DNA of 64,000 bases from Parcubacteria bacterium C7867-006. Its GTDB lineage: Bacteria; Patescibacteriota; Minisyncoccia; Phycocordibacterales; DATDWN01. The translations under genes and the position numbers were made by a program. Numbering within the stretch: the stretch's first letter is position 1; each line of letters begins with the position of its first letter. Of this stretch, positions 1,551 through 52,849 are shown in pieces. The notes below the pieces were generated by a model. The model was not told the DNA's origin. It searched no databases and saw only the letters and a list, made by a program, of their open reading frames with translations. The stretch is from NCBI GenBank assembly GCA_001189155.1, contig LFCP01000004.1, positions 133,618 through 197,617 of the forward strand, in the 5' to 3' direction.

Positions 1551-1562
1551 TTTATTATTTTT

Positions 1563-2504: not shown

Positions 2505-2509
2505 AACTT

Positions 2510-3190: not shown

Positions 3191-3235
3191 TTTAAGCCTA
3201 AAAATTTTCTATACTTTTCAAAATACTAGACCTAC

Positions 3236-3251
3236 AAAAAACTGACGAGGA
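3236..3251. repeat. Left arm of a 15-bp inverted repeat (aaaaactgacgagga) flanking the DUF1508 gene and its leader
   Basis: The reverse complement occurs at 3593..3607 (tcctcgtcagttttt). Confidence 0.5.
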
Positions 3252-3263
3252 ATTGCCTAGACA

Positions 3264-3449
3264 CTAGTTTGTAGAATCTACAATCACAGCATCCCAAGCA
3301 ATTTGCTTGACACGAGATGCAGAATTTATAGCACCTTGCTTAGAAACATAAGCTTCTGAAGCAGCAACTTTTTCGCCGTTTCCAGCAACTAGTCGCCATC
3401 GGTAATAACCTGCCGTGTCTTTGTAAATAACAAATATTGTTTTGTTCAT
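3264..3449 (-). CDS. DUF1508 (YegP-like) domain protein
   Basis: 61 aa; YKDTAGYYRWRLVAGNGEKVAASEAYVSKQGA is the typical YegP repeat. Confidence 0.55.
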   Translation of the reverse strand: MNKTIFVIYKDTAGYYRWRLVAGNGEKVAASEAYVSKQGAINSASRVKQIAWDAVIVDSTN

Positions 3450-3592
3450 ACAGTTTAATCTTGTTAACTCTAATAATGTTTAGGGACCGACCAGCGTAGA
3501 GCGCTCCCCGAATAAAAACCGAAATATTCAGTTTCTATTCGGGAGGTCTAGTGGCAGTGTGATCTAAACAAAAGAGAGGGGTCCAAGGTATA

Positions 3593-3607
3593 TCCTCGTC
3601 AGTTTTT
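3593..3607. repeat. Right arm of the 15-bp inverted repeat
   Basis: Pairs with 3236..3251. Confidence 0.5.
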
Positions 3608-3715
3608 CAAAGGCCTGTTTTGATAGAATTTTACACCTTCCCTTTTATGGTGTCTACTGTGATCCGGACGGGGGGTAAAGTGTGAACTACTTGTTATTTT
3701 TGTTAATATGGTCAC

Positions 3716-4357
3716 ATGAATACAATCTGGCTAGACAAAGTTTCTGAAAATATTTTCCCTTTGAGTTTGGAGCAAAAAGATATCAAGAAGGCTCTTACAG
3801 AATGGATATATGAAGGTAATTTTTACGATCTAGAAACTCCCTCAGAACTGTGTCAGCTTTGTAATCATCCTGACATTCGATATCAGTTTGAAATTCGAAA
3901 TAAAAATACCAGCAGTACTTTATTAATTGGTTCAGAATGTGTAACTAGATTTGGCGGTATTGTTGTGGTTGATGGGCAAGGAAATACAGTGGAAATAAAA
4001 GAAGCTAAGAAAAGAGTAGCAAAAGATAAAAACAAACTTATAAGAGATGCTGAAACAAAAAGTGTCATCAATACTCTTGTTACTTTAGGATCCTACGACC
4101 ACGAGTTCGACATCTCAAACTTTTTAAAATATTACCAAGAAAGAATGGCTTTCACACCTAATCAATTATCAACTATTCTTTGGAGAATAGAGAAGCATAA
4201 AGTTTACTTCAATAAGTCTCATTTTAAATTAACAATAAAAAGAGAGAGGGAGAAACAACAGCTTTTGAATATGGAAGATTGGAAACTAAAAAAGCTATTT
4301 CCTTGTCTATCGTCATCTCAAAAGAAATTCATTCAAGACGCTACTAATAATAAATAG
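3716..4357 (+). CDS. Hypothetical protein
   Basis: 213-aa ORF with a CQLCNH...GSECVTRFG Cys/His cluster. No family recognised. Confidence 0.4.
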   Translation: MNTIWLDKVSENIFPLSLEQKDIKKALTEWIYEGNFYDLETPSELCQLCNHPDIRYQFEIRNKNTSSTLLIGSECVTRFGGIVVVDGQGNTVEIKEAKKRVAKDKNKLIRDAETKSVINTLVTLGSYDHEFDISNFLKYYQERMAFTPNQLSTILWRIEKHKVYFNKSHFKLTIKREREKQQLLNMEDWKLKKLFPCLSSSQKKFIQDATNNK

Positions 4358-4398
4358 TCGTGTTTAGCTTTTTTAAGAAAAAAAGAAATTTTGTTGCC

Positions 4399-5085
4399 AT
4401 GAAGCTGGTTATAACTGATCATCTAAAGCAACTAGAAGAAAAAAGGACTTCTATCCCTGAAGATGTTTTTGATGTCACTAGGTTTTCTTTAGAAGAACTA
4501 CTGAGCACATTTGAGTCGATGGATACTTTGATTAAGAAAACTGACTACGAAGGTTGCATTAAGTTATCTAGGTCCATACTCGAAAATTCTGTAAACCTTA
4601 GATATATCTACAAAGAGGATACCGAAAAACGTGCTAAAAACTTTAAATTGAAATCAGTAAAGGAACTCTCAAGAAAGTTTGATTCTTTGGAAGAACGTAC
4701 ACCTGAGGCAAAAGAGATGAATGACTACTTTCAGGAGCTTCTTAAGGATTACACGCCTGAGAAAAATATACGTGAAAAATTCAAAGCCGTTAATTCTGAC
4801 GCTACATACATAAGATCATATAGGCGACTTTCGGAATTCATTCACCCTGCATATCGCCCAAAGAAAATAGATTTTAATGAAAACAGACCGTATGTTCTGG
4901 AAATGAAAAGAACTGTTAGATCAGATACATGCATTGTGGCTCTAATGGCTCTAGAAGTGGTTTGTCTTAAATATGACTTGGATGGAGGAATCGTTATGGT
5001 TGATGAACCGGGCTACATAGGAAAGGTATTTTTTGCCACAAACCCAAAGAAAGCATCGGAGGATGTAAAAGACCTTAAATTCTAG
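4399..5085 (+). CDS. Hypothetical protein, possibly HEPN-like (Rx4-6H motif RRLSEFIHPAY)
   Basis: ATG at 4399 is preferred over the GTG at 4360. The helical sequence carries an R-x5-H-x2-Y motif. Confidence 0.35.
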   Translation: MKLVITDHLKQLEEKRTSIPEDVFDVTRFSLEELLSTFESMDTLIKKTDYEGCIKLSRSILENSVNLRYIYKEDTEKRAKNFKLKSVKELSRKFDSLEERTPEAKEMNDYFQELLKDYTPEKNIREKFKAVNSDATYIRSYRRLSEFIHPAYRPKKIDFNENRPYVLEMKRTVRSDTCIVALMALEVVCLKYDLDGGIVMVDEPGYIGKVFFATNPKKASEDVKDLKF

Positions 5086-11603: not shown

Positions 11604-11642
11604 TGTACTAGAAGAACATTGAAACCTTTCACAGGAGAGACG

Positions 11643-12653
11643 ATGTCTACGACTGAAGGCCTAGAGGCCCCGCTCGTCACGATACTCGTCCCCTGCTATC
11701 AGTACGGACGGTATCTACGCAATTGTCTGGAAGGAATTTTCGCCCAGACAATCATCGACCAAATATCGGTTGAAATCATCGTCATCAACGATGCATCAAC
11801 CGACAACACTGACGCTGTTATGCGTGAGTTCACGGACCCGCGTATTCACTACATCCGCCACGACAGAAACCGTGGACTCTGCTACACACTGTCAGAAGGA
11901 CTCACCCTCGCAAGAGGTAAGTACTTTACTCGGATTGACGCGGACGACAGATGGAAACCTCACTTTCTGGAAGTAACACTTCCTGAGCTTGAGAGATACC
12001 CTGATGTTGCTCTCGTCTTCGGTGATGTTGCCCATGTTGATGAACAAGGAAACATCATCAACGAGGAAAGTACAATCGCTCGCTCACTTGAGGTTCACGG
12101 CGATCGTGATTTCAAGGGAGACAGATTTCTTTCACAAGTCGGCGAATGCACAATCGGCACCGCTGGTGTGATAGGAAGAACCGAAGCTTGGCGTAAGGGC
12201 CTACCTTTCCCCAAATGCTTTACTTGGGAGTCCCCGTCTGACTGGTGGCTGAACATCATGGCCATCAGAGATGCAGACGTGTACTACAAGAAGGGTATTC
12301 TTGGGGAATACCGCATGCACAGTGCGAGTATGACCCACCAACAAGGTAGTGTTGATGCGGTCGATATTGAACAGACCACCATCGGCGCTATCAATGAAGC
12401 GTTTAGCGGGGTAAATCTGAAAAGAGAACACCGCCTTGCGCGACGCATGATCTACGCCAACGCATGGACCACCCTCGGGAATATCAATTTCGAAAAAAAC
12501 CGAGGTAAAGATTCGAGGAGGTGCTACGCCAACGCAGTGCTCTGGCGACCGGACTATGTTTTAAGAAAGTCCATCGCTCGACACTTCCTGTCGAGTCTCC
12601 TGCCTCGGAAACTGTACGAGAAAATAAAGAAAGGGGTGAAGAAAATGTTCTGA
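11643..12653 (+). CDS. Family 2 glycosyltransferase (GC-rich cassette C)
   Basis: ILVPCYQ...IIVINDASTDNT...RIDADD GT2 motifs; AGGAGAG RBS 4 nt upstream; about 52% GC. Confidence 0.75.
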   Translation: MSTTEGLEAPLVTILVPCYQYGRYLRNCLEGIFAQTIIDQISVEIIVINDASTDNTDAVMREFTDPRIHYIRHDRNRGLCYTLSEGLTLARGKYFTRIDADDRWKPHFLEVTLPELERYPDVALVFGDVAHVDEQGNIINEESTIARSLEVHGDRDFKGDRFLSQVGECTIGTAGVIGRTEAWRKGLPFPKCFTWESPSDWWLNIMAIRDADVYYKKGILGEYRMHSASMTHQQGSVDAVDIEQTTIGAINEAFSGVNLKREHRLARRMIYANAWTTLGNINFEKNRGKDSRRCYANAVLWRPDYVLRKSIARHFLSSLLPRKLYEKIKKGVKKMF

Positions 12654-28298: not shown

Positions 28299-28814
28299 TT
28301 ACCCCTTCTTCAGAACTAATCTTGGCAAATTCTGAGTAATGGGTAGAGACACAAGTGTCTTTGCTTTGTACAACCTGAAAGCTTCTTGGCGATTGCCATC
28401 AAGAAGATTCGAGATCCTTATGCCGAGTCTCGAAACAGCCTGAGGTTTCGCTTGGGTGGTCGAAGGATAGCACAGAAAGGTAGCATCGTCGTGCACAGGC
28501 TCTGCTCCATATCCAAGTGTACGCAAAGCAGTGCACAAACAGAATGCAAGCCTCTCAGCCCTAGCAAACACAGGGCTAGTTGCGTATCCAATTGGATGAA
28601 TTTCGTTCGCGAGCCAGACGATGCTGAAGTCATCTTTCAGCTTACCGTCAACCTTTCTCTTTGAGGCAACTTGCGCTGCGTTGAAGACCTTCTTCTCGAG
28701 CTTAAAATTCAGCTGGAGAGATGGTTGAAGTCGAAGCTTGTGCCACTCCTTCACTCCCACTTCAACAAACTTGTTCCATTCATCGCTACCAACTGCTCGC
28801 ACCCAGTATTTCAT
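28299..28814 (-). CDS. Hypothetical protein (GC-rich cassette G, adjacent to tRNA-Leu)
   Basis: 171-aa ORF in DNA of about 52% GC; no family recognised. Confidence 0.4.
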   Translation of the reverse strand: MKYWVRAVGSDEWNKFVEVGVKEWHKLRLQPSLQLNFKLEKKVFNAAQVASKRKVDGKLKDDFSIVWLANEIHPIGYATSPVFARAERLAFCLCTALRTLGYGAEPVHDDATFLCYPSTTQAKPQAVSRLGIRISNLLDGNRQEAFRLYKAKTLVSLPITQNLPRLVLKKG

Positions 28815-38086: not shown

Positions 38087-38416
38087 ATGAGCACACGAGA
38101 TGATAGAATAAAAGAAATATTAAGAGACTTGGGAGCACGTTTTTTGCTTATAAATGGAAATGGTTCATCACTTATTACTGTTACAAATGTAGAATTAACA
38201 AGTCGTGGTAAAAATGCTACTATCTTCTTTACAGTCTTTCCAGTTGAATTTGAAAAGACCGCACTTGAGTTCGCAAAGAGAAAACGTAGTGAATTCAAGG
38301 AGTTTGTAATGGATAATTCAAAATTAGGTCGTATTCCTCAACTTGATTTTGAAATAGATACAGGAGAAAAAAATAGACAAAAAATTGACTCTCTCCTTGG
38401 TCAGCAAATAAAATAA
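38087..38416 (+). CDS. rbfA: Ribosome-binding factor A
   Basis: Small KH-like protein directly after infB. Confidence 0.7.
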   Translation: MSTRDDRIKEILRDLGARFLLINGNGSSLITVTNVELTSRGKNATIFFTVFPVEFEKTALEFAKRKRSEFKEFVMDNSKLGRIPQLDFEIDTGEKNRQKIDSLLGQQIK

Positions 38417-38488
38417 GGCGTAGTGGCCAAGTGGTAAGGCAAAGATCTGCAAAATCTTTATACGGCGGTTCGATTCCGCCCTACGCCT
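38417..38488 (+). tRNA. tRNA-Cys (anticodon GCA)
   Basis: Acceptor GGCGTAG/CTACGCC, anticodon loop CTGCAAA, T-loop TTCGATT. Confidence 0.75.
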
Positions 38489-38549
38489 CCCGAAAAAAGC
38501 AAAGCTTTTTAGCGGAATTGGGCCAATTTAGGTCATTCAAATAAATATT

Positions 38550-38634
38550 GCCCGGATGGCGGAACTGGTATACGCGCACGACTTAAAATCGTGTCTCGAA
38601 AGGGATGTGGGTTCGATTCCCACTCTGGGCACCA
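38550..38634 (+). tRNA. tRNA-Leu (anticodon TAA), CCA encoded
   Basis: Acceptor GCCCGGA/TCTGGGC, anticodon loop CTTAAAA, long variable arm. Confidence 0.8.
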
Positions 38635-38761
38635 GAAGAAAAACGGAGTTTTTTGAGTGGGAATCGAACAGATTTCCGGTTTACAAATTCAATAGAATTT
38701 GTCGGAAATTTGCGTTTTTAATTTTATTGAGTGGCGACGAAATAAAATTAAAAAAGATTAC

Positions 38762-38775
38762 CCCACTCTGGGCAC
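38762..38775. repeat. Direct repeat of the tRNA-Leu(TAA) 3' end (cccactctgggcac)
   Basis: Matches 38619..38632. It is embedded in a 21-bp perfect hairpin CTCTGGGCACAATAAAACTCC/GGAGTTTTATTGTGCCCAGAG. Confidence 0.55.
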
Positions 38776-38839
38776 AATAAAACTCCGTAAGGAGTTTTAT
38801 TGTGCCCAGAGAGTAAAGCTATGTTATAATTTTACGTTT

Positions 38840-38925
38840 GGAATCGAAGCCCGATTGAGATTTTTTATGATTTTAAGAAACAAAAAATCCAATTAGGGTA
38901 CTGATCCTGTAAGGATCGAATACCC
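38840..38925 (+). repeat. tRNA-linked structured repeat, copy E2
   Basis: Same architecture as E1 and E3; contains the exact 24-mer gggtactgatcctgtaaggatcga (38896..38919), which is also present at 39299..39322. Confidence 0.5.
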
Positions 38926-38933
38926 AAACTTTG

Positions 38934-39006
38934 TGCACCCACCAGGGATCGAACCTGGGACCTTATCCTTAAGAGGGATCTGCTCTACCAGCTGAGCTAT
39001 AGGTGC
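38934..39006 (-). tRNA. tRNA-Lys (anticodon CTT)
   Basis: Acceptor GCACCTA/TGGGTGC (one G-U pair), D-arm GCTC/GAGC, anticodon loop CTCTTAA, T-loop TTCGATC. Confidence 0.7.
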
Positions 39007-39084
39007 AATTCGTACATATTACCTGATATTTATGGTAATTTCAATATTTTTAAGAATATGTTATAGTTCTCGTGTGATAAATAC

Positions 39085-39166
39085 GGGCAAGTGGCGGAAT
39101 TGGTATACGCGCTAGTCTTAGGAACTAGTTCCTCACGGATTGGGAGTTCGAGTCTCCCCTTGCCCA
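39085..39166 (+). tRNA. tRNA-Leu (anticodon TAG)
   Basis: Acceptor GGGCAAG/CTTGCCC, anticodon loop CTTAGGA, long variable arm. Confidence 0.8.
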
Positions 39167-39232
39167 CAAACAACAAACACCGAAAGGTGTTTTTGTTTTG
39201 GGACAAGGAGAAAAGTCTGGGAGACTTTTCGT

Positions 39233-39958: not shown

Positions 39959-40603
39959 CTATTGATTAGTATGAAATGTTGAAGGCCAAGTAATACTCTC
40001 ATTACCTAAACTGTCTCTAACATAAACAATATAATAATATGTTGTATTAGGACTAAGATTAGTTAAAGATGTTGAATGTGAAGACTGTAGATTTGTATCT
40101 ACTAGAACACTAGACCCGCCAATAGTAACTTTAGTTGTCTGACTACCTTCAATCATTGAAAGTGGTGATGTTCCGTAATAAAGAACTGATGAAGAATTCT
40201 CATCTGTATTCCAACTAAGATTGGCCCCAGTATTTGAGACATTTACATTAACTGAATATATAAAAGGAGAAGTATTATCACCATTCATTTGGTTGTTTAT
40301 AGCAGCCAAAGTTATTGGACCAACACGACCAACAGTGGCTATTCCATTTCTTGCCTGAAAGTTAGAAACTGCTGAAGTAGTTAGAGTTCCGAAATACCCA
40401 GTAACTAGACCTTGAGGATAGATTGTTGCATCTTTAGCAAGAAAAGTTTGGAGAAGAGAAACATCTGCTCCAGACATACCTTGCTGTAACTGTCTGGTTA
40501 ACATTTCAGCAGAAGCTATAACTGGACTACCAGCTAAAACTAGAGAACTTATAATTATACTCGCACCGAAAACATACTGAACAAAACTTTTAATATTTGT
40601 CAT
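39959..40603 (-). CDS. Secreted protein with a peptidoglycan-binding (PG_binding_1-like) domain and an Fn3-like domain
   Basis: Signal/TM N-terminus; LQQGMSGADVSLLQTFL...GYFGTLTTSAVSNFQARNG PG-binding repeat; S/T/N-rich beta domain. Confidence 0.5.
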   Translation of the reverse strand: MTNIKSFVQYVFGASIIISSLVLAGSPVIASAEMLTRQLQQGMSGADVSLLQTFLAKDATIYPQGLVTGYFGTLTTSAVSNFQARNGIATVGRVGPITLAAINNQMNGDNTSPFIYSVNVNVSNTGANLSWNTDENSSSVLYYGTSPLSMIEGSQTTKVTIGGSSVLVDTNLQSSHSTSLTNLSPNTTYYYIVYVRDSLGNESITWPSTFHTNQ

Positions 40604-40876
40604 GATTTTTATATTTAATTTATAAAAGAACTTGGGCAAAACAATTTCTAAGTGCAAACTCTAGATACTTTCCACTGGATACAAATTAAATTGTCCAGTC
40701 GACTCTTGGAGATTACGAGTCTGATGTGCACCGTTGTTATTAGATATCCTTGCGACCCATTCATTATACACCCAATATTGACAATATACTACCTATATTG
40801 TTTTATGACACACAAATGCAAATAAACCTATTTTCATAAGTTTATTCTAATAACTTATAAAATATTAATGCAATAA

Positions 40877-43402: not shown

Positions 43403-43431
43403 TTGACTTTTCTATTTTTATGTGATAGAAT
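43403..43431 (+). promoter_or_regulatory. Sigma70-like promoter TTGACT-17-TAGAAT with extended TG
   Basis: Read directly, 70 nt upstream of the SPFH gene. Confidence 0.5.
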
Positions 43432-43502
43432 TATAAGCAGATGAGGATAGGCATCCTGCCGACCTCTCAGAACATTGACATCTGCATGAAAGGAAAAAGA
43501 AA

Positions 43503-44834
43503 ATGTCTGGACTAACGATGCTGTCGCTCGTCTTGACGGCACTGTTTCTCCTCTTCGCATTCTACCAGTCGAGGCCGAGCAAAACAGCCAAACCTGAAGA
43601 AGGACAAGAGAAGAAGTCGTCAAACGAACGACACAACCTTTGGTATCACCTGGGGTTCGTCGATGACACACCGAACCTGATTCGTCAGGTCGTCGCTGGA
43701 AGCGCAAAAAGCGGCCGGCCGATCAGGTACTTTGGGAACCTGCACGACGGGGTTATTGATGAGGCCACTGGCATCATTACATCCAACCCTAACCCACCCC
43801 TCCTTTCGGAGGGTTGGTTCCTGAATTTGATCAGGAAACACTTCGGCAAACGCTGGTGTCGCATTCCGATCATCCAGCATGTGAAGCCTTTGACGATTGA
43901 CCGGGTGGTCAGCAAGGACACCAAGTCAACTGTCAACGAACTCTCCGATGAACTTGACGCCTCAACAGTCGTCAAGGAAGGTCTCTACCGACTGATTCTT
44001 CGCCCAACCCTTCACAAGGATGTTGACGCGAAGAACAACATCCGGTTTAGCGTAATCAGTTACGCTGTTCTGGAAGTGTTCGACGCCAAACCGGCGTTCA
44101 ACATCTACCCGGACAGCTACTTGATCACTGTCAGCAAACTGATCTCTGCTTATCTTTCGAAGAATACCTTCAAACTTTCGTACGATGAGTACAAAGAGCG
44201 AGGGAACTCCTTCGAAAAAGAGCAGATCGATGAGTTGAACGGCGTGCTTCTCAGTCTGGGAATTCGGTGCAAGGAACTTCGTATGGGCGACCCTGAACTC
44301 AACAAGAGTGTTCAGGAAAGCCTTGAAAAAGAAGCCAAGGCTGAACAAGAAGCCAAGGCTCAGAAACGAAAGGGTCAGGGCCAAAAAGACTACGATACTC
44401 TCGTGTCCGAAGGCCAGTCCCAAGCAATCAGGAATCTGGCTGCCGCCAAGGCATCCAGGTTCTCTGAACTCATCAACCTCTACAAGAACGAAGGCTTGAC
44501 TGGGTCTGAAGCAGTGGACAGAGCAAATGCAATGATCTCAGCCGAGTTCAACGCAGATGCTGTTCGACAGCTTCAAGGAACCTACGTCGCTTCAGGTAAC
44601 GGCGTTCAACTTGCCGTTATGGAGAGAAGACCAAGTGCAACTACAAGTTCGACTACCGAAGCTGCAGCTCAAGCAGCGCCTACTGGCAGTCAGTCAGTGG
44701 GCCAGGCCTCGGCTCAACCAGCTCAACCTGTGGCTCAAAAGCCTATGGCTCCGAGCACAACCCAGGCTGGTCAGACTCCGCATCAGAATCAAGGCAGGGG
44801 TCACAAAGACAAGGGCCGCCGCAACAAGAAATAA
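43503..44834 (+). CDS. SPFH/band-7 (stomatin/flotillin-like) membrane protein with a low-complexity A/Q/P/T-rich, basic C-terminal tail (GC-rich cassette K)
   Basis: N-terminal TM; a core resembling the SPFH domain (DVDAKNNIRFSVISYAVLEV...LGIRCKELRMGDPELNKSVQESLEKEAKAEQEAKA). Confidence 0.5.
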   Translation: MSGLTMLSLVLTALFLLFAFYQSRPSKTAKPEEGQEKKSSNERHNLWYHLGFVDDTPNLIRQVVAGSAKSGRPIRYFGNLHDGVIDEATGIITSNPNPPLLSEGWFLNLIRKHFGKRWCRIPIIQHVKPLTIDRVVSKDTKSTVNELSDELDASTVVKEGLYRLILRPTLHKDVDAKNNIRFSVISYAVLEVFDAKPAFNIYPDSYLITVSKLISAYLSKNTFKLSYDEYKERGNSFEKEQIDELNGVLLSLGIRCKELRMGDPELNKSVQESLEKEAKAEQEAKAQKRKGQGQKDYDTLVSEGQSQAIRNLAAAKASRFSELINLYKNEGLTGSEAVDRANAMISAEFNADAVRQLQGTYVASGNGVQLAVMERRPSATTSSTTEAAAQAAPTGSQSVGQASAQPAQPVAQKPMAPSTTQAGQTPHQNQGRGHKDKGRRNKK

Positions 44835-44949
44835 ACGGTCCAACACCATCGTTGCGGTCATTGCGATCATCACGCTGATTATCGCGAAGATCGCAACTAG
44901 CGTCTTCCACTTTCTGTCGGAGATTGGTCTTTGGTTCAAAGCGGAAGCT

Positions 44950-45825
44950 ATGAACTACTATCAAACTCCCAGTGGTGGACTGATTAGCAAGGTAATACTG
45001 GTGGTTCTCCCGGTTGCATCATTTGCGCTTGCGTACGTGATGTATCGGAGGAACCATCCAACTTCTCCGAGGTTCAAATATCGTAGTAGCCGAAGTTCGA
45101 AAGACTTCGCCGCTGCTGTGATGATGCCGTTTGGCCTGGCCATCGGCGTCGGAATCCTCTGGGGAGTTGTGTACTTCCTGGCTTGGGGGCCTGGAATTCT
45201 GCACTACTTCTCTTTCCCTATCTGGGGAAAAGCGGAAGCTAGGATGAGCACTCCAACCAACAGTGGCTTCGTCGACAAAAACGAAGTCCACCGTCGGACG
45301 GGAGAGTTCTGGTATTCCAACTTGCCACCGACCGAGGCCAAGGAGATGCTCGACATCGCCACGGAAGAGTCACATTTCCAGCAATTCAACACTGATGGGA
45401 GTGTCTTCACCGGCGTGGACGACCCAGCCGACACGGGCGTGATGCAAATCAACGTCCGTGAGAACCAGAAAGACCTGATAGCGTGGGGGCTCAACGTCAA
45501 CACTCTCGAAGGAAATCTGGAAGCGGCCAAAAGGCTTCGTCAGAAATACGGCACGAAGCCTTGGCAACGGACGGTGGATAAAATCAAAAACCGTCCGTCG
45601 CAGATAATCACCATCAAGGTGCCAAAGGAAGGTCGCAGTGAAAGGTTTACCCCCGACGGCAGATTCTGCCAGGGTCAAACCGATCTTCCAGTCACCGTAT
45701 GGGACGACAAAGGTAGGAGCCACCCAATGACTCCGACCAGCGTTCCAACTGTTCCGTCGTTGTGGTATGAGTACTCCACTCCAAGTGGAGGCTCACTCCC
45801 AACGATCACCATTTCATGCAGGTAA
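44950..45825 (+). CDS. Membrane-anchored lytic transglycosylase (SLT/lysozyme-like domain) (cassette K)
   Basis: Two TM helices, then ATEESHFQQFN...TGVMQINVRENQ...LEAAKRLRQKYG, which matches the ES...GLMQI...AY SLT signature. The start is uncertain because the in-frame hydrophobic stretch upstream lacks an ATG. Confidence 0.5.
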   Translation: MNYYQTPSGGLISKVILVVLPVASFALAYVMYRRNHPTSPRFKYRSSRSSKDFAAAVMMPFGLAIGVGILWGVVYFLAWGPGILHYFSFPIWGKAEARMSTPTNSGFVDKNEVHRRTGEFWYSNLPPTEAKEMLDIATEESHFQQFNTDGSVFTGVDDPADTGVMQINVRENQKDLIAWGLNVNTLEGNLEAAKRLRQKYGTKPWQRTVDKIKNRPSQIITIKVPKEGRSERFTPDGRFCQGQTDLPVTVWDDKGRSHPMTPTSVPTVPSLWYEYSTPSGGSLPTITISCR

Positions 45826-45831
45826 CGCAAA

Positions 45832-45866
45832 GCGCGGAGACCCTTCGGGGCCCTCCGCGCTTTTTT
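45832..45866 (+). terminator. Intrinsic terminator GCGCGGAG...CTCCGCGC-TTTTTT
   Basis: Read directly; it closes cassette K. Confidence 0.65.
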
Positions 45867-45886
45867 CATATCTGAATTTTGTGTTG

Positions 45887-46195
45887 TTATAGTTTTAGAA
45901 AATTCGTTGCACCTGAAGAATTTATATCAGAAGATGTTATACCGAATGTTCCCATAACAAAACGTATAATCCCAAAAACAGAAAACATAATAACCATACC
46001 TGCGATCCCCCACATTATTGCACTTCTTGACTCTCCTCTAGTTTTATCAGCAGAATTTAAATCTTGATTTAGGAAATTGAATACTCCGTAAACAAAATAC
46101 AAAAACGATACCGCAAACATTAGTAACAAAAGTGGATTGATAATCAAATCAATTACTTTGTTTAGGAAAGGTACAATAGATAATGATGAGGACAT
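45887..46195 (-). CDS. Small two-TM membrane protein, VirB2/TrbC-pilin-like paralog 1 (no signal peptide)
   Basis: Shares the core FxYGxFNFL...K..G....IMWGIAGMVIMFSVFG with the five upstream paralogs. Confidence 0.4.
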   Translation of the reverse strand: MSSSLSIVPFLNKVIDLIINPLLLLMFAVSFLYFVYGVFNFLNQDLNSADKTRGESRSAIMWGIAGMVIMFSVFGIIRFVMGTFGITSSDINSSGATNFLKL

Positions 46196-46210
46196 AATTT
46201 GTCCGAAAAA

Positions 46211-46555
46211 TTAAAGACCTAGAACCTGTGGAGGTTGAATAGCTCCATTGTTAGTTACTCCCAAGTTTGTTTGCAACCAGTAAACTAGACCGTAGATAGA
46301 AAGCATCACTGCAATAGCAACAACACCCCAAATCATCTGATTTCGGCCAGCTTCCTGTGCCTTTGGATCTCCTGCAGCTCGTAGAAATACAACAAGTCCC
46401 CAGAAGAAGTAAATGATAGCTAAGGCGAACATTATTGGAATAATTCTTCCTATAATTTGTCCAAAATCCTGAACTAGAGCAGAAAGGTTACCCAATGTCT
46501 GAGCAAAAGTTAGAACTGGAGCCAAAGCTAAAGCTGAATAAATAATTTTCTTCAT
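46211..46555 (-). CDS. Secreted two-TM small protein, VirB2/TrbC-pilin-like paralog 2
   Basis: Signal peptide, then IPIMFALAIIYFFWGL...K...G..MIWGVVAIAVMLSIYG. Confidence 0.4.
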   Translation of the reverse strand: MKKIIYSALALAPVLTFAQTLGNLSALVQDFGQIIGRIIPIMFALAIIYFFWGLVVFLRAAGDPKAQEAGRNQMIWGVVAIAVMLSIYGLVYWLQTNLGVTNNGAIQPPQVLGL

Positions 46556-46641
46556 TTTTTTAAATTAACTATTAAATAACTAATGTAATAATTGTAGTAC
46601 AAAATCAATAAAAAACAAGTATATTGTGGATAAAGAAAATA

Positions 46642-47043
46642 TTAATTTCCAAATGTTGGTAAAGTATAACCACCTTGTTGTGGTGTATACAAACCAGAAG
46701 AACTACTAGTTCCATTTGGTGAGATACCGATTAGATTACCTATAGCCATTAAGATTCCATAAATTGAAAACATCACAAATAACGCAATAACTCCCCAAAG
46801 CATTTTTTTCTTTCCATCTTCTCGTGTTTTATCACTAGCCGCATCATTTAGAATAAACTGCGCTCCACCCCAAAAGAAAAAAGCCATTGCAAGACCAAAC
46901 ACAATTCTAATTCCAAAATTAATAAGTCCACCAAAATCCACAAGTAATGTTCTGAGACTGTCTAGAGCAGCAAAAGAGACAACCGGTAAAACCAGAGCCA
47001 AAGATGATGCTAAATAAATCCTTTTGTTTAATTTCATATTCAT
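46642..47043 (-). CDS. Secreted two-TM small protein, VirB2/TrbC-pilin-like paralog 3
   Basis: FFFWGGAQFI...K..G.KKMLWGVIALFVMFSIYG core. Confidence 0.4.
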   Translation of the reverse strand: MNMKLNKRIYLASSLALVLPVVSFAALDSLRTLLVDFGGLINFGIRIVFGLAMAFFFWGGAQFILNDAASDKTREDGKKKMLWGVIALFVMFSIYGILMAIGNLIGISPNGTSSSSGLYTPQQGGYTLPTFGN

Positions 47044-47056
47044 ATTATTTTAATAA

Positions 47057-47512
47057 TTATGGTGCCGGAACCCCACTTGGTAAATTAAAAGTACTTGTAT
47101 TCTGACCACTGTTTGTTGAAGTTGGTATAAGTGGAATAGTTGATGAATCCCCTATCTCCAAATCTCGAGCTATCAATCCTATGATAGCTCTTACAGAAAT
47201 AAGAACAAACAGCACAACAACCCCCCATATCATATAATTTTTACCCTTCTGCACATCTGCTGGACTACCAGAGTTTAGAATAAACCTCGATAGACCCCAG
47301 AAAAATGCTAAGAAACTTAAAGCAAAAAGTATCGGAATAATAAGAGAGATAACATTTATTATATGGTAGATACTACAACCAAAATCAACACCTATTAAAG
47401 AAAAACTACTAGTGTCGCAAGCTGTTACTCCAGAAGTAAACTGAGAAAAAACAAAAGTTGGAAACATTAGCACTATCAGAATGAGAAACTTTAAATGTTT
47501 TTTTGTATTCAT
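47057..47512 (-). CDS. Secreted two-TM small protein, VirB2/TrbC-pilin-like paralog 4
   Basis: Start chosen at MNTKKHL; FFWGLSRFI...K.YMIWGVVVLFVLIS core. Confidence 0.4.
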   Translation of the reverse strand: MNTKKHLKFLILIVLMFPTFVFSQFTSGVTACDTSSFSLIGVDFGCSIYHIINVISLIIPILFALSFLAFFWGLSRFILNSGSPADVQKGKNYMIWGVVVLFVLISVRAIIGLIARDLEIGDSSTIPLIPTSTNSGQNTSTFNLPSGVPAP

Positions 47513-47520
47513 ATTTTTAT

Positions 47521-47925
47521 CTAGTTCATAAGAGCTCTGACTGTATTTTCGACAACAACTGAAATAGCAGCCGCTCCCAGAAGTATACCTGCACCAATAA
47601 GTGACCATAAAAGGTTTTTCTTTGCGTCATCAATTTTCTTTGGGTTACCTTGAGCAAGAACAAACTGAAAACCTGCCCAGACAATCCAAACCACAACAGC
47701 AACAGCAGCTATTGGCATAACTATATTTGACAATATAACTCTAATCAAAGCCATAAGGTCATTACCTCCATTAAAAGGATTATCGATTTTCGCACCTATC
47801 TGTGTTGAACCTGGAGTTGGTGATTGTGTTGTTGATGGAGCTGGCATTGTTTGAGCCAACAAAATTACCGGGGCAAGCATCACAAGAAAACCCATAACAG
47901 AAAATATTTTTTTTATTTTATTCAT
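47521..47925 (-). CDS. Secreted two-TM small protein, VirB2/TrbC-pilin-like paralog 5
   Basis: Signal peptide; VVVWIVWAGFQFV...K..KKNLLWSLIGAGILLG core. Confidence 0.4.
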   Translation of the reverse strand: MNKIKKIFSVMGFLVMLAPVILLAQTMPAPSTTQSPTPGSTQIGAKIDNPFNGGNDLMALIRVILSNIVMPIAAVAVVVWIVWAGFQFVLAQGNPKKIDDAKKNLLWSLIGAGILLGAAAISVVVENTVRALMN

Positions 47926-47934
47926 AAATTTTTA

Positions 47935-48399
47935 TTAACCTAATGGTACCAAATTTTTAACATTGTTATTCAATAAACTATTTGTAATCAGTGTAACTAT
48001 GAGCCAAGCTGCTAACATAAAAAATATTCCCCAAGCAACCTTAACAAGCCTACCGTTTGCCCTTGCTCTAGCCCCCGGATTACCTCCAGATGTCATATAC
48101 TCAAAACCAACATATGCAATTATTACAACAGTAAAAGCTAGGGCAAGAGGAATAGCTATTCCAAAAAATTTCTTAACCGCATATATCAAATCATTAAAAC
48201 CACAATCCCCATAGATAGTGGTGCCGTTAGGACCAGGCCTACTACATTCATATGTTATACCAGTACTCTGACCACCTCCAGTTGTGTCTGTACTTCCACC
48301 TGGAGGAACCATTACTTGTGAATATGAAAAAACAGGTAGAGAAATAAATAAAGCTATCAAAAAGAATTTTAATATTTCTGATTTTATTTTATTTTTCAT
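47935..48399 (-). CDS. Secreted two-TM small protein, VirB2/TrbC-pilin-like paralog 6
   Basis: Signal peptide; G/T-rich linker; AYVGFEYM...G....VKVAWGIFFMLAAWLI core. Confidence 0.4.
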   Translation of the reverse strand: MKNKIKSEILKFFLIALFISLPVFSYSQVMVPPGGSTDTTGGGQSTGITYECSRPGPNGTTIYGDCGFNDLIYAVKKFFGIAIPLALAFTVVIIAYVGFEYMTSGGNPGARARANGRLVKVAWGIFFMLAAWLIVTLITNSLLNNNVKNLVPLG

Positions 48400-48400
48400 A

Positions 48401-49693
48401 TTATTTTAATTGAGCATTTAACTCCAAATTAACTCTATTGAGTGCCTCTGGTATACTAGTTTTTCCACCAGTTATAGATTCTATCATATCCCTAAACAAG
48501 TTTGAGCTTTGTGTTGGTTCTGGATCAATCCATGAGTGTGAAATCAAAGCTGAGTTATAAAATACAGTTCTGTAGGCATCTGTTGGCGCATCTGCTAACA
48601 AATCTCTTCTTACTGGAGGAAGATTAACTACAGTTTCAAGTGCTTTTATAGATGCTGGCTCTACCAAAGATACAGCTAGAGTGTATGCGCCAGCAATTTT
48701 TTGAGATTGTTTAACAATAGAGAGCGAATACATATGTCCAAATACAGATTTTTTTGGAGCATTTCTTATTTGAGGAACATAAGTTACATCAAAATTTAAG
48801 TTTGAATTTTTTTGTTGTATAGGGAATATTTCTGAAGCAAATCCAATATATGTTGCAAGATTTCCAGCTAAAAACATATTTAATGAGTTTGGTAATGATC
48901 TGTTCCATGTATAAGCAGGAGAAGTTGGATTTGAAAACTGAGTATAGAAACTGACTGCTGACTGACTAGGTGCTATAGGATAGTTAAATACAGCATTTAA
49001 AACAGATACTACATTGCTGTTTTGTCTTGTTGTAATAGGAGTACCAGCCTGAATCAATATCATTGATAGAATCTCTTTTGCATTTACTATATTTCTCCAC
49101 TCTCCCAATGCAACAGTAGCTTGTAAAATGTTCGCATTGTTATCACGTTTAGTCATTTTATTTATAAGATCATATATCTCATCCCAATATTTTGGAGGTT
49201 GAGGAATGACATTGTTTGAAAACATATCTCTATTCCAATACATAACAAGAGGATCAACAATAAAAGGCAGTGAGGTGACACCATCTGGAGCTAGAAACAT
49301 TTCCCCTTCCTCTATGAAAGTATCTTTAAATGTTCTAGCTGAATAGTTTTTATATGGAATAGTAAAAATTTTATTTCTATTCTGATAAACCCAATCATCT
49401 CTCAATATCACAAGATCAGGTCCCTTTCCGTCAGCAAGAGCCTCAACAAAGCTTTGTTGAAAATCTACAGAATCCTTTTTAACATAAGTAACTTTTATTA
49501 GTTTATTACTTGCAACAGAAGAAGCTTTATAGGCGGCATTAAAAGCATTATCACTTATTGTTCCCCAAACCAACAAATCAGCTTGAGCTGATGAAGATGA
49601 CCCTTTCGACATAGCAAACAAGAAAAGCCCGACCACTATTGAAACAGAAAAGATTGCTAAAACTGCAAGTTGAAATTTACTTAGATTATTCAT
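48401..49693 (-). CDS. Extracellular solute-binding protein-like (family 1 SBP-like), membrane-anchored
   Basis: N-terminal anchor; LLVWGTISDNAFNAAYK...KVTYVKKDS...GKGPDLVIL matches the SBP_bac_1 pattern. No permease genes are adjacent. Confidence 0.45.
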   Translation of the reverse strand: MNNLSKFQLAVLAIFSVSIVVGLFLFAMSKGSSSSAQADLLVWGTISDNAFNAAYKASSVASNKLIKVTYVKKDSVDFQQSFVEALADGKGPDLVILRDDWVYQNRNKIFTIPYKNYSARTFKDTFIEEGEMFLAPDGVTSLPFIVDPLVMYWNRDMFSNNVIPQPPKYWDEIYDLINKMTKRDNNANILQATVALGEWRNIVNAKEILSMILIQAGTPITTRQNSNVVSVLNAVFNYPIAPSQSAVSFYTQFSNPTSPAYTWNRSLPNSLNMFLAGNLATYIGFASEIFPIQQKNSNLNFDVTYVPQIRNAPKKSVFGHMYSLSIVKQSQKIAGAYTLAVSLVEPASIKALETVVNLPPVRRDLLADAPTDAYRTVFYNSALISHSWIDPEPTQSSNLFRDMIESITGGKTSIPEALNRVNLELNAQLK

Positions 49694-50371: not shown

Positions 50372-52849
50372 TTACAAACAAATCAATGAAGCAATACTAT
50401 CTCCGTCGCGCAACTTCATGATGCGAACTCCCTGAGTCTGTCGTCCTAACACTGGAATCTCCTTTGCATCCACTCTTATCACTTGAGACTTCTTTGAAAT
50501 AGCCACTATCTCTCCCTCACCTTCGGCAAAAACTTTTGCTGAAATAAGATTTCCTGTTTTTGGAGTAACATTTGCTGTTTTGATACCACTTCCACCTCTG
50601 TTTTGTATCTTATACTCATCTATATCTGTACACTTTCCATATCCATTTGCAGAAATAACCATCAAACTACCATTATTCATTGAGTTTGGAACTGTTTCAG
50701 CGGAAATAACAACATCACCTTTACCTAGTTTTATTGCTCTAACACCCATAGCTGTTCTTCCCATCTCTCTTATATCTGCCTCTTTAAAATGAATTGACTG
50801 ACCTTTTTGTGTAACAACTATAACTGTGTCTTTACTATGAGTGAATGAAGCAGAGACTAGTTCGTCTTTATCTTCTAGCTTGATAGCGATAATTCCTGAA
50901 ATACGCACATCGTGGAATGATGCTGTTGCTACTTTCTTTGCGACTCCCTGCTTTGTAACCATCATCAGAGAACTTGTCTCTTTCTTAACTTCTTTTGGCA
51001 TTGGTAGAACAGATGTAACACTCTCACCCTCACCTAGAGGCAAGAAGTTCATTATAGACTTACCTTTTGTTGCTCTTCGCCCTTCTGGAATATCATACAT
51101 TTTTGTTTGATATGCTTTTCCTTTGTTTGTGAAAAATAGTAGGTCGGAGTGAGTAGATGCGATAAGAAGCATTGTCACAAAATCCTCTTCTTTTGTATCC
51201 AAATCAACAACTCCAACCCCTCCTCGTTTTTGTTTTCGAAATTCATCTGGATTTGTTCTTTTTATGTATCCACCAGCAGTTAGAACTAAAGCGTTTTCCT
51301 CATCAGGAATTAAATCCTCAACTGACAAAACTTGAGCTCCGCCTTTTATAATACGAGTTCTTCTTTCATCACCATATTTCTCTTTTATTTCTTTACTTTC
51401 GTCTTTTATTATTCCCAAAATCTTTTTTGGTGATGCAAGAATCGCCTTACACTCTTCAATAAATAGTTGAACTGCTTTTAATTCATCCTCGATTTTCTTT
51501 CTTTCAAGACCAGCGAGTCTAGAAAGTTTCATTTCCAAAATAGCAGAAGCTTGGATTGCTGAAAACTTAAATTCTGACATCAAACGCTTATGTGCTTCAG
51601 TAGTGTCCTTTGAGCTTCTAATAAGTTTTATAATCTGCTCTATGTGATCAAGAGCTTTTTTAAGACCGAGTAAAATATGCTCTCTCTCAAGAGCCTTTTT
51701 CAAGTCATATTCTGTTCTGCGTCTTATAACAGTAACTCGGTGAGAGATAAAATTCTCCAAAATCCCTTTTAGAGAAAGTGTTTCTGGTACTCCGTTTACC
51801 AAAGCAAGCATATTGTAATGGAAAGTATCCTCTAGTTGAGTATGTTTATACAAATAATTCAAAACTGTTTGAGGATGCGCTGTTCCTTTGAGCTCAATAA
51901 CAATTCTAATATCTTTTGCTGACTCATCTCTAATATCTTTTATACCCTCTACTTTTTTCTCTCTATGTAAATCTACAATTTTCAAAATAAGATCTGATTT
52001 ATTAACACGAAAAGGAATAGAAGTGATAACAATCTGGAACTGACCAGACTTTGTTTCAACTATCTCAGCGTTACCACGAACAACAACACCACCTTTTCCA
52101 CTAGCATATGCATGAGCAATGTCTTTTTGATTGAAAGCAATACCTCCAATTGGAAAATCTGGTCCTTTTACAAACTCTAGTAAATCTTCAGTTGTAGCAT
52201 CTTTATTATCGGCAAGATGAATTACAGCATCCATTACCTCTCCCAAGTTATGCGGAGGAATGTTTGTTGCCATTCCAACAGCAATACCAAGTGTTCCGTT
52301 CAAAAGTAAGTTTGGAACTCTAGTTGGCAAAACCTTTGGCTCCTTCTTTGTTCCATCGTAGTTTGGAATAAAATCAACAGTTTCTTTTTCAATATCCTTC
52401 AAAAGTTCAGCAGCCAAACGAGACATTTTTGACTCTGTATATCTGTATGCAGCGGCGTTATCTCCATCAATAGAACCGAAGTTACCTTGTCCAACTATGA
52501 GTGGATATCGCATAACGAAGTCCTGAGCCATTTTCACCATTGAGTCATAAACAGCAACATCGCCATGAGGGTGGTAGTTTCCAATAACGTCTCCAACAAC
52601 AGTAGCGGATTTTCTTGTTTTACCAGAAAAAGTAAGATTATTCTCACCCATTGAGAACAAAATTCTTCTGTGTACAGGTTTCAAACCATCACGAACATCA
52701 GGAAGAGCACGGTCAGTAATAACTGACATAGCATAATCAATAAAAGAAGTTTTCATCTCATCAGTGATTTCCTGTGAGATCACATTTATATGAGGTAATG
52801 CTGCTACCGGTTCATCTCCATTACTGTCAGACTTGAGTTTTTTTGCCAT
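50372..52849 (-). CDS. gyrA: DNA gyrase subunit A
   Basis: Active-site region AAMRYTE-like ([10 protein letters not shown]), the QRDR region and C-terminal beta-pinwheel repeats. Confidence 0.9.

Follow-up and report, generated by a model that had tools for sequence, protein, structure and literature searches.

A VirB2/TrbC-like pilin array convergent with an SPFH and lysozyme-like gene pair in Parcubacteria bacterium C7867-006

The stretch of DNA analysed here, called the window, comprises 64 kb from Parcubacteria bacterium C7867-006 (GCA_001189155.1). The genome is ultra-small. The window contains a plus-strand cassette of two genes, encoding an SPFH protein and a lysozyme-like protein, and a minus-strand array of six pilin genes. 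A preliminary description of this sequence had placed the cassette upstream of the array on the opposite strand; the strand is right, and the arrangement is corrected to convergent, with a 61-nt spacer that contains a strong hairpin terminator. The features are listed below.

43403..43431, plus strand: predicted cassette promoter, sigma-70-like (TTGACT, 17 nt, TG-TAGAAT; consensus scan)
43503..44834, plus strand: SPFH/stomatin-type membrane protein, 443 aa, AB201_02405 (Pfam Band_7)
44557..44949, plus strand: probable in-frame 5' extension of the lysozyme-like gene (homologue P0002, conserved +1-frame translation)
44950..45825, plus strand: lysozyme-like protein with a membrane anchor, annotated length 291 aa, AB201_02410
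45829..45866, unstranded: GC-rich hairpin with a trailing U run, predicted intrinsic terminator of the cassette (fold energy)
45887..46195, minus strand: pilin paralog 1, 102 aa (subthreshold PF18895 score of 17.5 bits, cut-off 26.6)
46211..46555, minus strand: pilin paralog 2, 114 aa (PF18895, 34.2 bits)
46642..47043, minus strand: pilin paralog 3, 133 aa (PF18895, 32.4 bits)
47057..47512, minus strand: pilin paralog 4, 151 aa from the MNTKK start (PF18895, 26.7 bits)
47521..47925, minus strand: pilin paralog 5, 134 aa (PF18895, 33.8 bits)
47935..48399, minus strand: pilin paralog 6, 154 aa (PF18895, 36.5 bits)
48401..49693, minus strand: extracellular solute-binding protein gene, 5' neighbour of the array (Pfam SBP_bac_8 / SBP_bac_1)

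The six small genes lie consecutively on the minus strand between 45887 and 48399, as had been described, and form a tight operon. The Pfam gathering threshold of PF18895 (T4SS_pilin), 26.6 bits, is passed by five of them with 26.7-36.5 bits, a match to the pilin family far beyond chance, and the earlier suggestion that all six are VirB2/TrbC-like is supported by this Pfam check. Weak TrbC and Mbov_0395 pilin-like matches were also obtained; paralog 5, for instance, matches TrbC/VirB2 PF04956 at E 0.0029 and reaches 35.6 bits against NF045849 (cut-off 40). Judged by their sequences, the six paralogs are divergent members of the VirB2/TrbC-like T4SS pilin family, with pairwise identities of 12-43%. 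In each of them, alignment and hydropathy revealed a pair of hydrophobic helices linked by a short K/R/G-rich loop; helix 1 ends in FFWG or a variant, and helix 2 starts with (M/L)(I/L)W(G/S). The common architecture proposed previously holds with these variants, except that the N-terminal signal peptide, a predicted cleavable leader ending in F/L/Y-A/S-Q/A, occurs in 5/6 paralogs and is missing in paralog 1. This paralog, the array gene closest to the cassette, has two TM helices and shows the highest conservation among the six (95% identity to its counterpart in the related locus L001); it was recovered at E 4.5e-26 by an HMM of the array paralogs of the clade, in which paralog 1 is itself included. 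Paralog 6 carries a Cys-containing variable segment besides its signal peptide and two TM helices, and it starts directly 3' of the stop codon of the solute-binding-protein gene. The latter adjoins the array in all related loci extending that far and is probably co-transcribed with it. The start of paralog 4 is placed at 47512 because its relatives begin at the MNTKK/MKTKK methionine; the longer ORF of 183 aa, which runs to 47608 and overlaps paralog 5, is probably spurious.

The first cassette gene encodes an SPFH protein with an A/Q/P/T-rich tail, in agreement with the preliminary description. Its Band_7 match reaches 30.8 bits (Pfam cut-off 23.6), and the family profile matches the P. horikoshii stomatin 3bk6 at E 1.5e-11 and also QmcA, stomatin, HflC and prohibitin. 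The protein has a single N-terminal TM helix (residues 1-23, hydropathy) and a coiled-coil-like EAKAEQEAKAQ segment that precedes the tail; the segment EKEAKAEQEAKAQKRK aligns with the helical region of HflC. The N-terminal anchor and the C-terminal coiled-coil region, which would mediate oligomerisation, are thus both present. In this gene, substitutions between the window and L001 fall preferentially at third codon positions, as for a coding gene. An SPFH gene directly 5' of a membrane-protein gene, often overlapping it, is also seen in HflK/C-FtsH and in the pair of stomatin PH1511 and NfeD protease PH1510. In those systems the partner is a protease, whereas here it is a peptidoglycan hydrolase-like protein, in which no NfeD domain was detected, setting the cassette apart from SPFH-NfeD (STOPP) operons. 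A family-specific insert of ~150 aa and, in this genome, the low-complexity tail further distinguish the SPFH protein from HflK/C and PH1511.

The second cassette gene, as annotated, encodes two TM helices (~44965-45200), a lysozyme-like catalytic domain (~45277-45588) and a cupin-like beta domain (~45601-45819). The catalytic domain carries its Glu-Ser within EES and its Asp within DPADTGVMQIN, and the beta domain has a Cys pair. The catalytic domain had been described as an SLT-type lytic transglycosylase. The motifs on which this was based (ES...GVMQIN...AAKRL) are present, as is a lysozyme-like domain of the kind found in VirB1-type enzymes, but the assignment to SLT/GH23 was not supported by HMM, and C-type lysozymes match best. 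The window protein has no Pfam match to SLT (PF01464), Lys (PF00062) or SLT_3 at E up to 1; among 75 family members, weak matches to SLT (12/75) and SLT_3 (4/75) have a best E of 5.3e-5, and those to Lys (3/75) a best E of 4.6e-6. Profile search against the PDB matched GH22 C-type lysozymes at E 8.9e-5, and HMM alignments place both the catalytic Glu and the catalytic Asp on those of C-type lysozymes. We take these residues to be the equivalents of Glu35 and Asp52 in hen lysozyme numbering. Of 75 family members, 74 keep Glu-Ser and 62 keep Asp, and the catalytic Glu ends the first long helix (E-S motif) of a lysozyme-like fold. SLT, EtgA and phage lytic transglycosylases follow close behind among the best sequence and fold matches. 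The predicted chemistry covers either a lytic transglycosylase or a hydrolase. EtgA (T3SS, PDB 4xp8) and GH22 lysozymes (Bombyx 1gd6) are only 15-17% identical to the window domain, which differs from them in being bacterial, membrane-bound and fused to a beta domain; its catalytic domain contains no cysteine, and the GH22 disulphide framework is absent. The sole conserved Cys pair is C-terminal, in the beta domain, and its co-conservation fits an extracytoplasmic location. Most likely, the protein is a membrane-tethered peptidoglycan-cleaving enzyme.

The two-TM topology reported previously applies to the gene as annotated, whose start at 44950 probably cuts off a conserved first TM helix. 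The upstream extension runs in the +1 frame across the SPFH tail (44557-44834), and the helix, predicted by hydropathy, is encoded at 44836-44949. The extension is spanned by homologue P0002, and its +1-frame translation is conserved between the window and L001; the codon-position signal is ambiguous over 36 codons, and no ATG, GTG or TTG occurs between 44634 and 44950. The extension is the probable true N-terminus of the lysozyme-like protein.

The cassette may be transcribed from a promoter-like site within the AT-rich spacer 5' of the SPFH gene, which has 10/12 consensus matches and an extended -10 TG. At its other end, the terminator hairpin has fold energies of -24.4 kcal/mol (z -4.0) on the plus strand and -28.3 kcal/mol (z -4.2) on the minus strand, and its inverted repeat is also found in L001. 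As the hairpin sits between convergent operons, it possibly acts in both directions. Being convergent with the pilins, the cassette is not co-transcribed with them.

The order of SPFH gene, lysozyme-like gene and convergent pilin array was found in 12/12 distinct related loci examined, and every relative examined in the clade thus has homologues of both cassette genes beside such an array, as the preliminary description had required. In most loci the two genes of the cassette either overlap or directly adjoin each other, suggesting translational coupling. The far-side neighbours of the cassette differ among the 12 loci, and the cassette-array junction has remained unbroken while gene order on the other side broke repeatedly. 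Nevertheless, the gyrA-to-cassette block as a whole is syntenic within the clade, so the adjacency of cassette and array may be inherited order without functional meaning. The cassette evolves much faster than its housekeeping flanks: the lysozyme-like enzyme shares 22-35% identity with its counterparts in other loci, compared with 60-75% for the solute-binding protein and a methyltransferase.

Outside this clade, 80 loci with the lysozyme-like domain contain no pilin (best E 0.5), and no T4SS Pfam family was found among 140 neighbour genes in 24 of them. Small homologues there lie near ROK, EVE, DoxX, PGI, Asp/Glu racemase and M23 peptidase genes, and in one further lineage an SPFH gene lies directly 5' of the small lysozyme-like gene (9/80 loci), again without pilins. 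Such housekeeping neighbourhoods are more in line with a general part in wall remodelling than with one dedicated to the pilus. The cassette could accordingly be a general autolysin or wall-remodelling unit, in which an SPFH-controlled muramidase serves growth or division and lies beside the pilins through inherited order only. We regard this as possible yet doubtful, because the low identity of the enzyme relative to its flanks is unusual for a core growth function and the junction with the array stayed intact.

Similarly tentative is the proposal that the SPFH and lysozyme-like pair is a dedicated VirB1-type wall-opening component, forming one functional locus with the array. VirB1 (Agrobacterium), PrgK (pCF10) and TraG (pIP501) share with the window enzyme a lysozyme-like domain with the Glu-Ser motif and adjacency to T4SS pilin genes, and the Gram-positive PrgK/TraG-type enzymes are likewise membrane-anchored. 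The window enzyme differs from them in its lack of a Pfam SLT match, its polytopic anchor, its SPFH partner and its cupin-like beta domain in place of a CHAP, NlpC/P60 or M23 second domain, and it lies outside any virB4 cluster. Convergent transcription also argues against a single functional locus. In addition, most VirB2-bearing genomes lack VirB1 (PMC12102498), which is apparently dispensable for pilus biogenesis there. The pairing of VirB1-like and VirB2-like genes noted earlier is thus borne out as conserved gene order in one clade, but not as a property of the wider enzyme family, so the argument for a VirB1-like coupling is gene order within that clade. Such a link of the cassette to the pilins is a plausible hypothesis.

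The cassette had also been called compositionally foreign. Its composition is indeed distinct, with 51% GC over 44-46 kb against ~35% in the flanks. The GC3 values of its genes, 0.58 and 0.62, lie ~5 sd above the average of 51 other window genes (0.254, sd 0.067). Together with the finding of one close homologue only of the lysozyme-like gene among 5.8 billion proteins, this could point to recently imported foreign DNA without a host role (a mobile element, prophage remnant or assembly chimera). However, the same sequence is present in three assemblies, and the cassette is GC-richer than its flanks at the same position in 10/10 loci measured. Third-position divergence between the window and L001 is 0.42-0.52 in the cassette, modestly higher than the 0.29-0.42 of the flanks, indicating vertical co-divergence; its third-position bias indicates purifying selection on both cassette genes. 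No integrase, flanking tRNA or terminal repeats were found at the cassette, nor did it match phage records, plasmids, viral contigs or defence systems. Recent import is therefore very unlikely and largely refuted, and the cassette was inherited vertically; it may nonetheless stem from one ancient acquisition, the donor being a CPR lineage with 42-50% GC.

It is highly improbable that the six small proteins belong to another two-TM class (holins, bacteriocin-immunity proteins or membrane chaperones), as paralog 1, with its subthreshold score and missing leader, might suggest, since the other five pass PF18895, no holin family (Pfam) or PHROG matches any of the six, and homologous arrays lie inside T4SS clusters, the pilin series being essential in Southlakia epibionticum (SEML1_0006-0019 cluster; PMC10633639).

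To date, 441 VirB2-like arrays of 2-11 genes, with a mean identity of 25%, have been reported in Patescibacteria (PMC12102498). The window array resembles them in its PF18895 family, its tandem divergent paralogs and its chromosomal location, and the genome, GCA_001189155.1, is marked VirB4-positive in Table S1 of that study. Unlike them, it has no adjoining virB4 and follows a solute-binding-protein gene. As previously stated, the window contains no VirB4/VirD4 ATPase: a search of the ORFs with 150 aa or more throughout the 64 kb found neither a T4SS ATPase nor a channel gene, and no T4SS core gene is among the genes called up to 10 kb from the cassette. Given the published multi-gene arrays (PMC12102498; PMC10633639) and the listing of the genome as VirB4-positive, the suggestion of a minimal or novel conjugation-like system is not supported. 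The GC-rich SPFH and lysozyme-like gene pair flanking the array is mentioned in neither study and is previously undescribed.

The best explanation, which we consider probable, is that the locus holds two neighbouring, separately transcribed envelope modules: a pilin array of a known type and a peptidoglycan hydrolase with an SPFH partner. Five of the pilins would be exported by Sec and then cut by signal peptidase, and the pilins would be inserted as two-helix hairpins. Their polymerisation into pili may be carried out by a Gram-positive-type (MPF-FATA-like) T4SS of this genome, whose VirB4 would be encoded outside the window, and the diversity of the paralogs may provide alternative or mixed pilus surfaces. 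The cassette, in turn, would comprise a stomatin-type SPFH scaffold and a polytopic protein that displays the lysozyme-like domain outside the cell, with the small cupin-like domain probably binding glycan. The SPFH oligomer may confine or gate the presumably active enzyme, as HflK/C does for FtsH and stomatin for its operon partner. In one Paceibacteria clade the cassette consistently adjoins the array's distal end, and this gene order suggests that it may open the wall locally for passage of the pilus or T4SS, in a manner resembling VirB1 or PrgK.

The locus comprises a plus-strand pair of genes, here called the cassette, which converges on an array of pilin-like genes:

43503-44834, plus strand: SPFH gene
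44950-45825, plus strand: lysozyme-like gene as annotated, encoding a protein of 291 aa
45887-48399, minus strand: six VirB2-like pilin paralogs

The six consecutive minus-strand genes of the preliminary description were recovered by ORF listing, and the pilin architecture claimed for them was borne out by alignment and hydropathy. The paralogs consist of a leader, missing from one of the six, then a variable segment, two helices joined by a short basic loop, the first ending in FFWG or similar and the second starting with (M/L)(I/L)W(G/S), and a variable tail, with pairwise identities of 12-43% inside the array. In Pfam, five of the six score above the gathering cut-off for PF18895 (T4SS_pilin) and one has a weak TrbC/VirB2 match; all six give sub-threshold matches to the NCBIfam Mbov_0395 pilin-like conjugal transfer family. 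The fourth gene has a long ORF overlapping the fifth, and its relatives begin at an internal Met (47512). Since the array genes are packed with spacings of 8-86 nt and the first directly follows the stop codon of the gene for a solute-binding protein, the array and this gene probably form one operon. The solute-binding protein (48401-49693) is extracellular and carries an N-terminal TM helix. Its gene abuts the first pilin gene without a spacer and is kept beside the array in every locus reaching that far (equivalents in the related loci L004, L013, L018 and L021), so that co-transcription with the pilins is probable. Neither an ABC permease gene nor an ATPase gene lies beside it.

Such arrays have been described previously. 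When 3,035 Patescibacteria genomes were searched for PF18895 and PF04956, VirB2-like pilins turned up in 1,948 assemblies positive for VirB4, of which only 1,135 had them near virB4, and 441 arrays of 2-11 pilin genes each were counted, with an average identity of 25% (PMC12102498). The patescibacterial system has no relaxases, and monoderm conjugation machinery is considered by the authors to be its co-opted source; GCA_001189155.1, the genome to which the window belongs (Paceibacteria, 673,860 bp), is VirB4-positive in their Table S1 (PMC12102498). In Southlakia epibionticum, an essential pilin series lies inside the T4SS cluster (PMC10633639). The role of the T4SS and multi-pilin arrays in Patescibacteria has been called 'completely unknown' (PMC11665869).

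Scanning of window ORFs of at least 150 aa, together with precomputed Pfam annotation out to 10 kb from the cassette, gave no T4SS ATPase or channel gene. What came up were housekeeping genes only, namely gyrA, topA, clpB, relA/spoT, murA/B, parB, ftsA/Z, signal peptidase I, dprA, tRNA synthetases and a type I restriction fragment. Because arrays are published and the genome is listed as VirB4-positive, the array is regarded as an unlinked part of the known system, and the 'minimal or novel conjugation-like system' proposed earlier is abandoned. The array is a further case of a class already known, and the locus tells nothing new about arrays themselves.

What is new is a conserved accessory pair, unreported beside arrays, which as judged from sequence combines a stomatin-type scaffold with a membrane-bound lysozyme-like enzyme whose catalytic residues appear intact. 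In a full-text literature search, no paper joined Patescibacteria, SPFH and lytic transglycosylase. The SPFH identity of the first gene is confirmed by a Band_7 match above the Pfam threshold, and a profile from 11 family members matches Pyrococcus horikoshii stomatin (E 1.5e-11), QmcA, human stomatin, HflC and prohibitin. The protein has a single N-terminal TM helix by hydropathy and, in the window genome, the gene ends with a 65-aa low-complexity tail. In L001, the closest related locus, an in-frame stop between SSGGLY and IILRPT splits the SPFH gene (1265-2668), which is called as two genes of 186 and 260 aa; either the gene is a pseudogene there or the stop is a sequencing error.

The full protein of the second gene has no match in Pfam, NCBIfam, PHROGs, PADLOC or, by single-sequence phmmer, the PDB. 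Word-indexed searching of 5.8 billion proteins found a single close homologue (72% identity), and only three relatives when a profile was used. A full-length AF2 model built on three aligned sequences was of poor quality (pLDDT 56), and nothing meaningful came from comparing it by Foldseek. Six divergent copies (22-26% identical) were recovered from the neighbourhoods of SPFH homologues, and the 7-sequence profile matched C-type lysozymes in the PDB (E 8.9e-5), the alignment placing the catalytic Glu of 'ES' and Asp of 'D-x-G-V-M-Q-I-N' in register. Exhaustive HMMER with the soluble part gave 1,496 cluster representatives at a cut-off of E <= 1e-3, of which 307 reached E <= 1e-10, a mixed set in which some proteins have the catalytic and a C-terminal beta domain and others are small and catalytic-domain-only; the cluster names of these wider-family members were uninformative. 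Among 75 sampled members, Glu-Ser is found in 74 and Asp in 62, the Q, N and W of the core motifs are conserved, the beta domain has a co-conserved Cys pair, and there are weak Pfam matches to SLT (12/75), SLT_3 (4/75) and Lys (3/75). The 'SLT-type' label given earlier to the enzyme stands at the level of fold and catalytic motif, but GH23 rather than GH22 is not assignable.

Hydropathy places two TM helices in the enzyme as annotated and three with a conserved upstream helix. The basic loop between TM helices suggests, by the positive-inside rule, that the catalytic domain faces outward. Most simply, the cassette would encode an SPFH-partnered, membrane-tethered peptidoglycan-cleaving enzyme. 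SPFH proteins form membrane cages around clients, as HflK/C with FtsH and stomatin with its operon partner, and a gating role of the SPFH protein for the enzyme is suggested on this ground.

The annotated enzyme start at 44950 is probably too far downstream. Its reading frame is open from 44557, about 390 nt above the annotated ATG, and overlaps the SPFH tail out of frame. The N-terminus of the L001 protein is homologous to the product of the extension (44557-44949), a basic amphipathic stretch plus a TM helix, and relatives also have this extra helix, which argues for an earlier start. The only canonical in-frame upstream starts in the window sequence are a GTG near 44633 and the ATG at 44557, either of which would create a 200-280-nt out-of-frame overlap with the SPFH gene; such a long overlap is possible, and the codon-position signal is ambiguous over the 36 non-overlapping codons of the extension. 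In most loci the cassette genes overlap by 1-4 nt, and in the corresponding stretch of L001 (2391-2918) they are drawn apart by a 141-nt tandem duplication with 28-nt cores at 2560 and 2701. A putative sigma-70-like promoter, a consensus match with an extended -10, precedes the SPFH start by 70 nt, and the 61-nt gap between the convergent stop codons holds a strong hairpin followed by a U run, which is kept in L001. The promoter-like site and the intervening hairpin terminator indicate that cassette and array are separate convergent units.

The order SPFH gene, lysozyme-like gene, convergent pilin array is the same in every relative retrieved (L001, L004, L007, L008, L009, L011, L012, whose contig ends inside the lysozyme-like gene, L013, L015, L018 and L021), so that SPFH and lysozyme-like homologs do co-occur with such arrays elsewhere. 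Beyond the array, where the contig reaches, follow the solute-binding protein, a methyltransferase and gyrA. A genome-collection scan with a narrow alignment returned one locus, of the same clade. On the cassette's other side the neighbours vary, with pyruvate kinase in the window and fn3/PhoD-like, LGT plus a radical-SAM enzyme, or DUF2127 elsewhere. The window also encodes, some 3 kb away from the cassette, a protein joining PG_binding_1 and a purple-acid-phosphatase N-terminal (fn3-like) domain (39959-40657), relatives of which directly flank the cassette in L007, L011 and L015. Four tRNA genes (Cys, Leu-taa, Lys, Leu-tag) occupy both strands at 38416-39167, between rbfA and this PG_binding_1 gene. 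The gyrA of L013 (9522-12213) contains an intein, with Pfam Intein_splicing between two DNA_topoisoIV matches, whereas the window gyrA (50372-52849) has none.

The wider family shows which of these associations recurs. A metagenome scan outside the clade gave 80 loci with small lysozyme-like genes (median 140 aa), whose core reaches at most 52% identity with that of the window along the best-matching segment. A canonical SPFH gene of 250-260 aa lies 78-939 nt upstream on the same strand in nine of the 80 (6/37 of those with at least 1.5 kb upstream); as their SPFH proteins are 77-89% identical to one another, these nine represent one additional lineage, which has a near-identical 'DPADTGVMQIN' motif. 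An HMM from 83 pilin ORFs of the window and related loci found no pilins in the 80 loci (best E 0.5). Among 140 neighbour genes of 24 long loci, Pfam gave ROK (20), EVE (16), DoxX (12), LOG (9), Asp/Glu racemase (8), PGI (7), M23 (5) and Band_7 (4), and no T4SS family. The SPFH-enzyme pairing, recurring at least twice, is a functional unit with better support than the pilin link, which, as read from gene order alone, is confined to one clade. In other CPR-like lineages (e.g. L024, 7481-11605, one of the 80 loci), small secreted lysozyme-like genes recurrently have ROK kinase, EVE-domain, DoxX, LOG-like, Asp/Glu racemase and PGI genes as neighbours, and one lineage has a canonical stomatin gene directly upstream.

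The 291-aa protein is identical to AB201_02410 of 'Parcubacteria bacterium C7867-006', and the same DNA recurs in a Logan assembly and in a contig of a JGI metagenome, which rules out an assembly chimera. The cassette segment has 51% GC against about 35% in the flanks, and GC3 is 0.58 and 0.62 in its two genes against a mean of 0.254 (sd 0.067) in 51 other window genes. In all ten loci measured, both cassette genes are GC-richer (44-54%) than the pilins and other flanks (33-43%). Rfam over the window gave tRNAs only and no structured RNA as a cause of the GC island. A mobile-element origin was rejected, there being no flanking direct repeats, terminal repeats, integrase or flanking tRNA; an anti-phage defence system was likewise discarded, with no PADLOC match. 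Phage, plasmid and viral-contig searches gave no cassette relatives.

Identities to the window in other loci are 60-69% for the solute-binding protein, 60-75% for the methyltransferase, 44-68% for the pilins, 34-48% for SPFH (one outlier 18%) and 22-35% for the lysozyme-like protein. Compared with L001, its closest relative, the window differs at third positions by 0.42-0.52 in the cassette and by 0.29-0.42 in the flanks, and first- and second-position differences are likewise higher in the cassette. These identities and codon-position divergences show co-divergence with the flanks, and the history of the cassette is one of vertical descent with faster protein evolution, not recent replacement. 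The cassette had been described as 'compositionally foreign', which is true of its composition but finds no sign of recent replacement. An old import from a lineage like the wider-family loci, with slow amelioration, is possible because those loci have 38-50% GC. The cassette offers a clean case of codon composition staying deviant (GC3 about 0.6 vs 0.25) over long vertical descent, a persistence that simple amelioration models do not predict. Elsewhere in the window, a family-2 glycosyltransferase gene (11619-12653; GC 0.50, GC3 0.55) and a 171-aa ORF adjoining tRNA-Leu (28299-28814; GC 0.475, GC3 0.49, no Pfam match) both have a GC3 strongly raised for the genome and may be further compositional islands. 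The left end (9-5085) is a possible defence or mobile region, where part of a type I restriction R subunit (EcoEI_R_C, ResIII) precedes genes for DUF5655, a PolB-like 3'-5' exonuclease and DUF5677.

As for function, the enzyme might open the wall for the pilus in a VirB1/PrgK-like manner, a tentative reading. General wall remodelling by the enzyme is an alternative to be held with similar reserve. It is rather improbable that the SPFH-enzyme pair is a host-directed weapon and not a housekeeping enzyme, in which case a fast-evolving, SPFH-gated, membrane-tethered muramidase would act with the variable T4SS pilins to breach the host wall at the contact zone in Paceibacteria episymbiosis. In its favour are the predicted outward-facing enzyme domain, the divergence of the enzyme, faster than that of all its neighbours, and the locking of the cassette to the pilin array in the clade; the persistent atypical codon composition would then reflect special expression control or recurrent module exchange. 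Whichever wall is concerned, the cell's own or the host's, the SPFH-enzyme pair provides a concrete, testable candidate for opening peptidoglycan for a pilus in a thick-walled ultra-small cell, and the lysozyme-like enzyme may represent a new type of client for SPFH cages.
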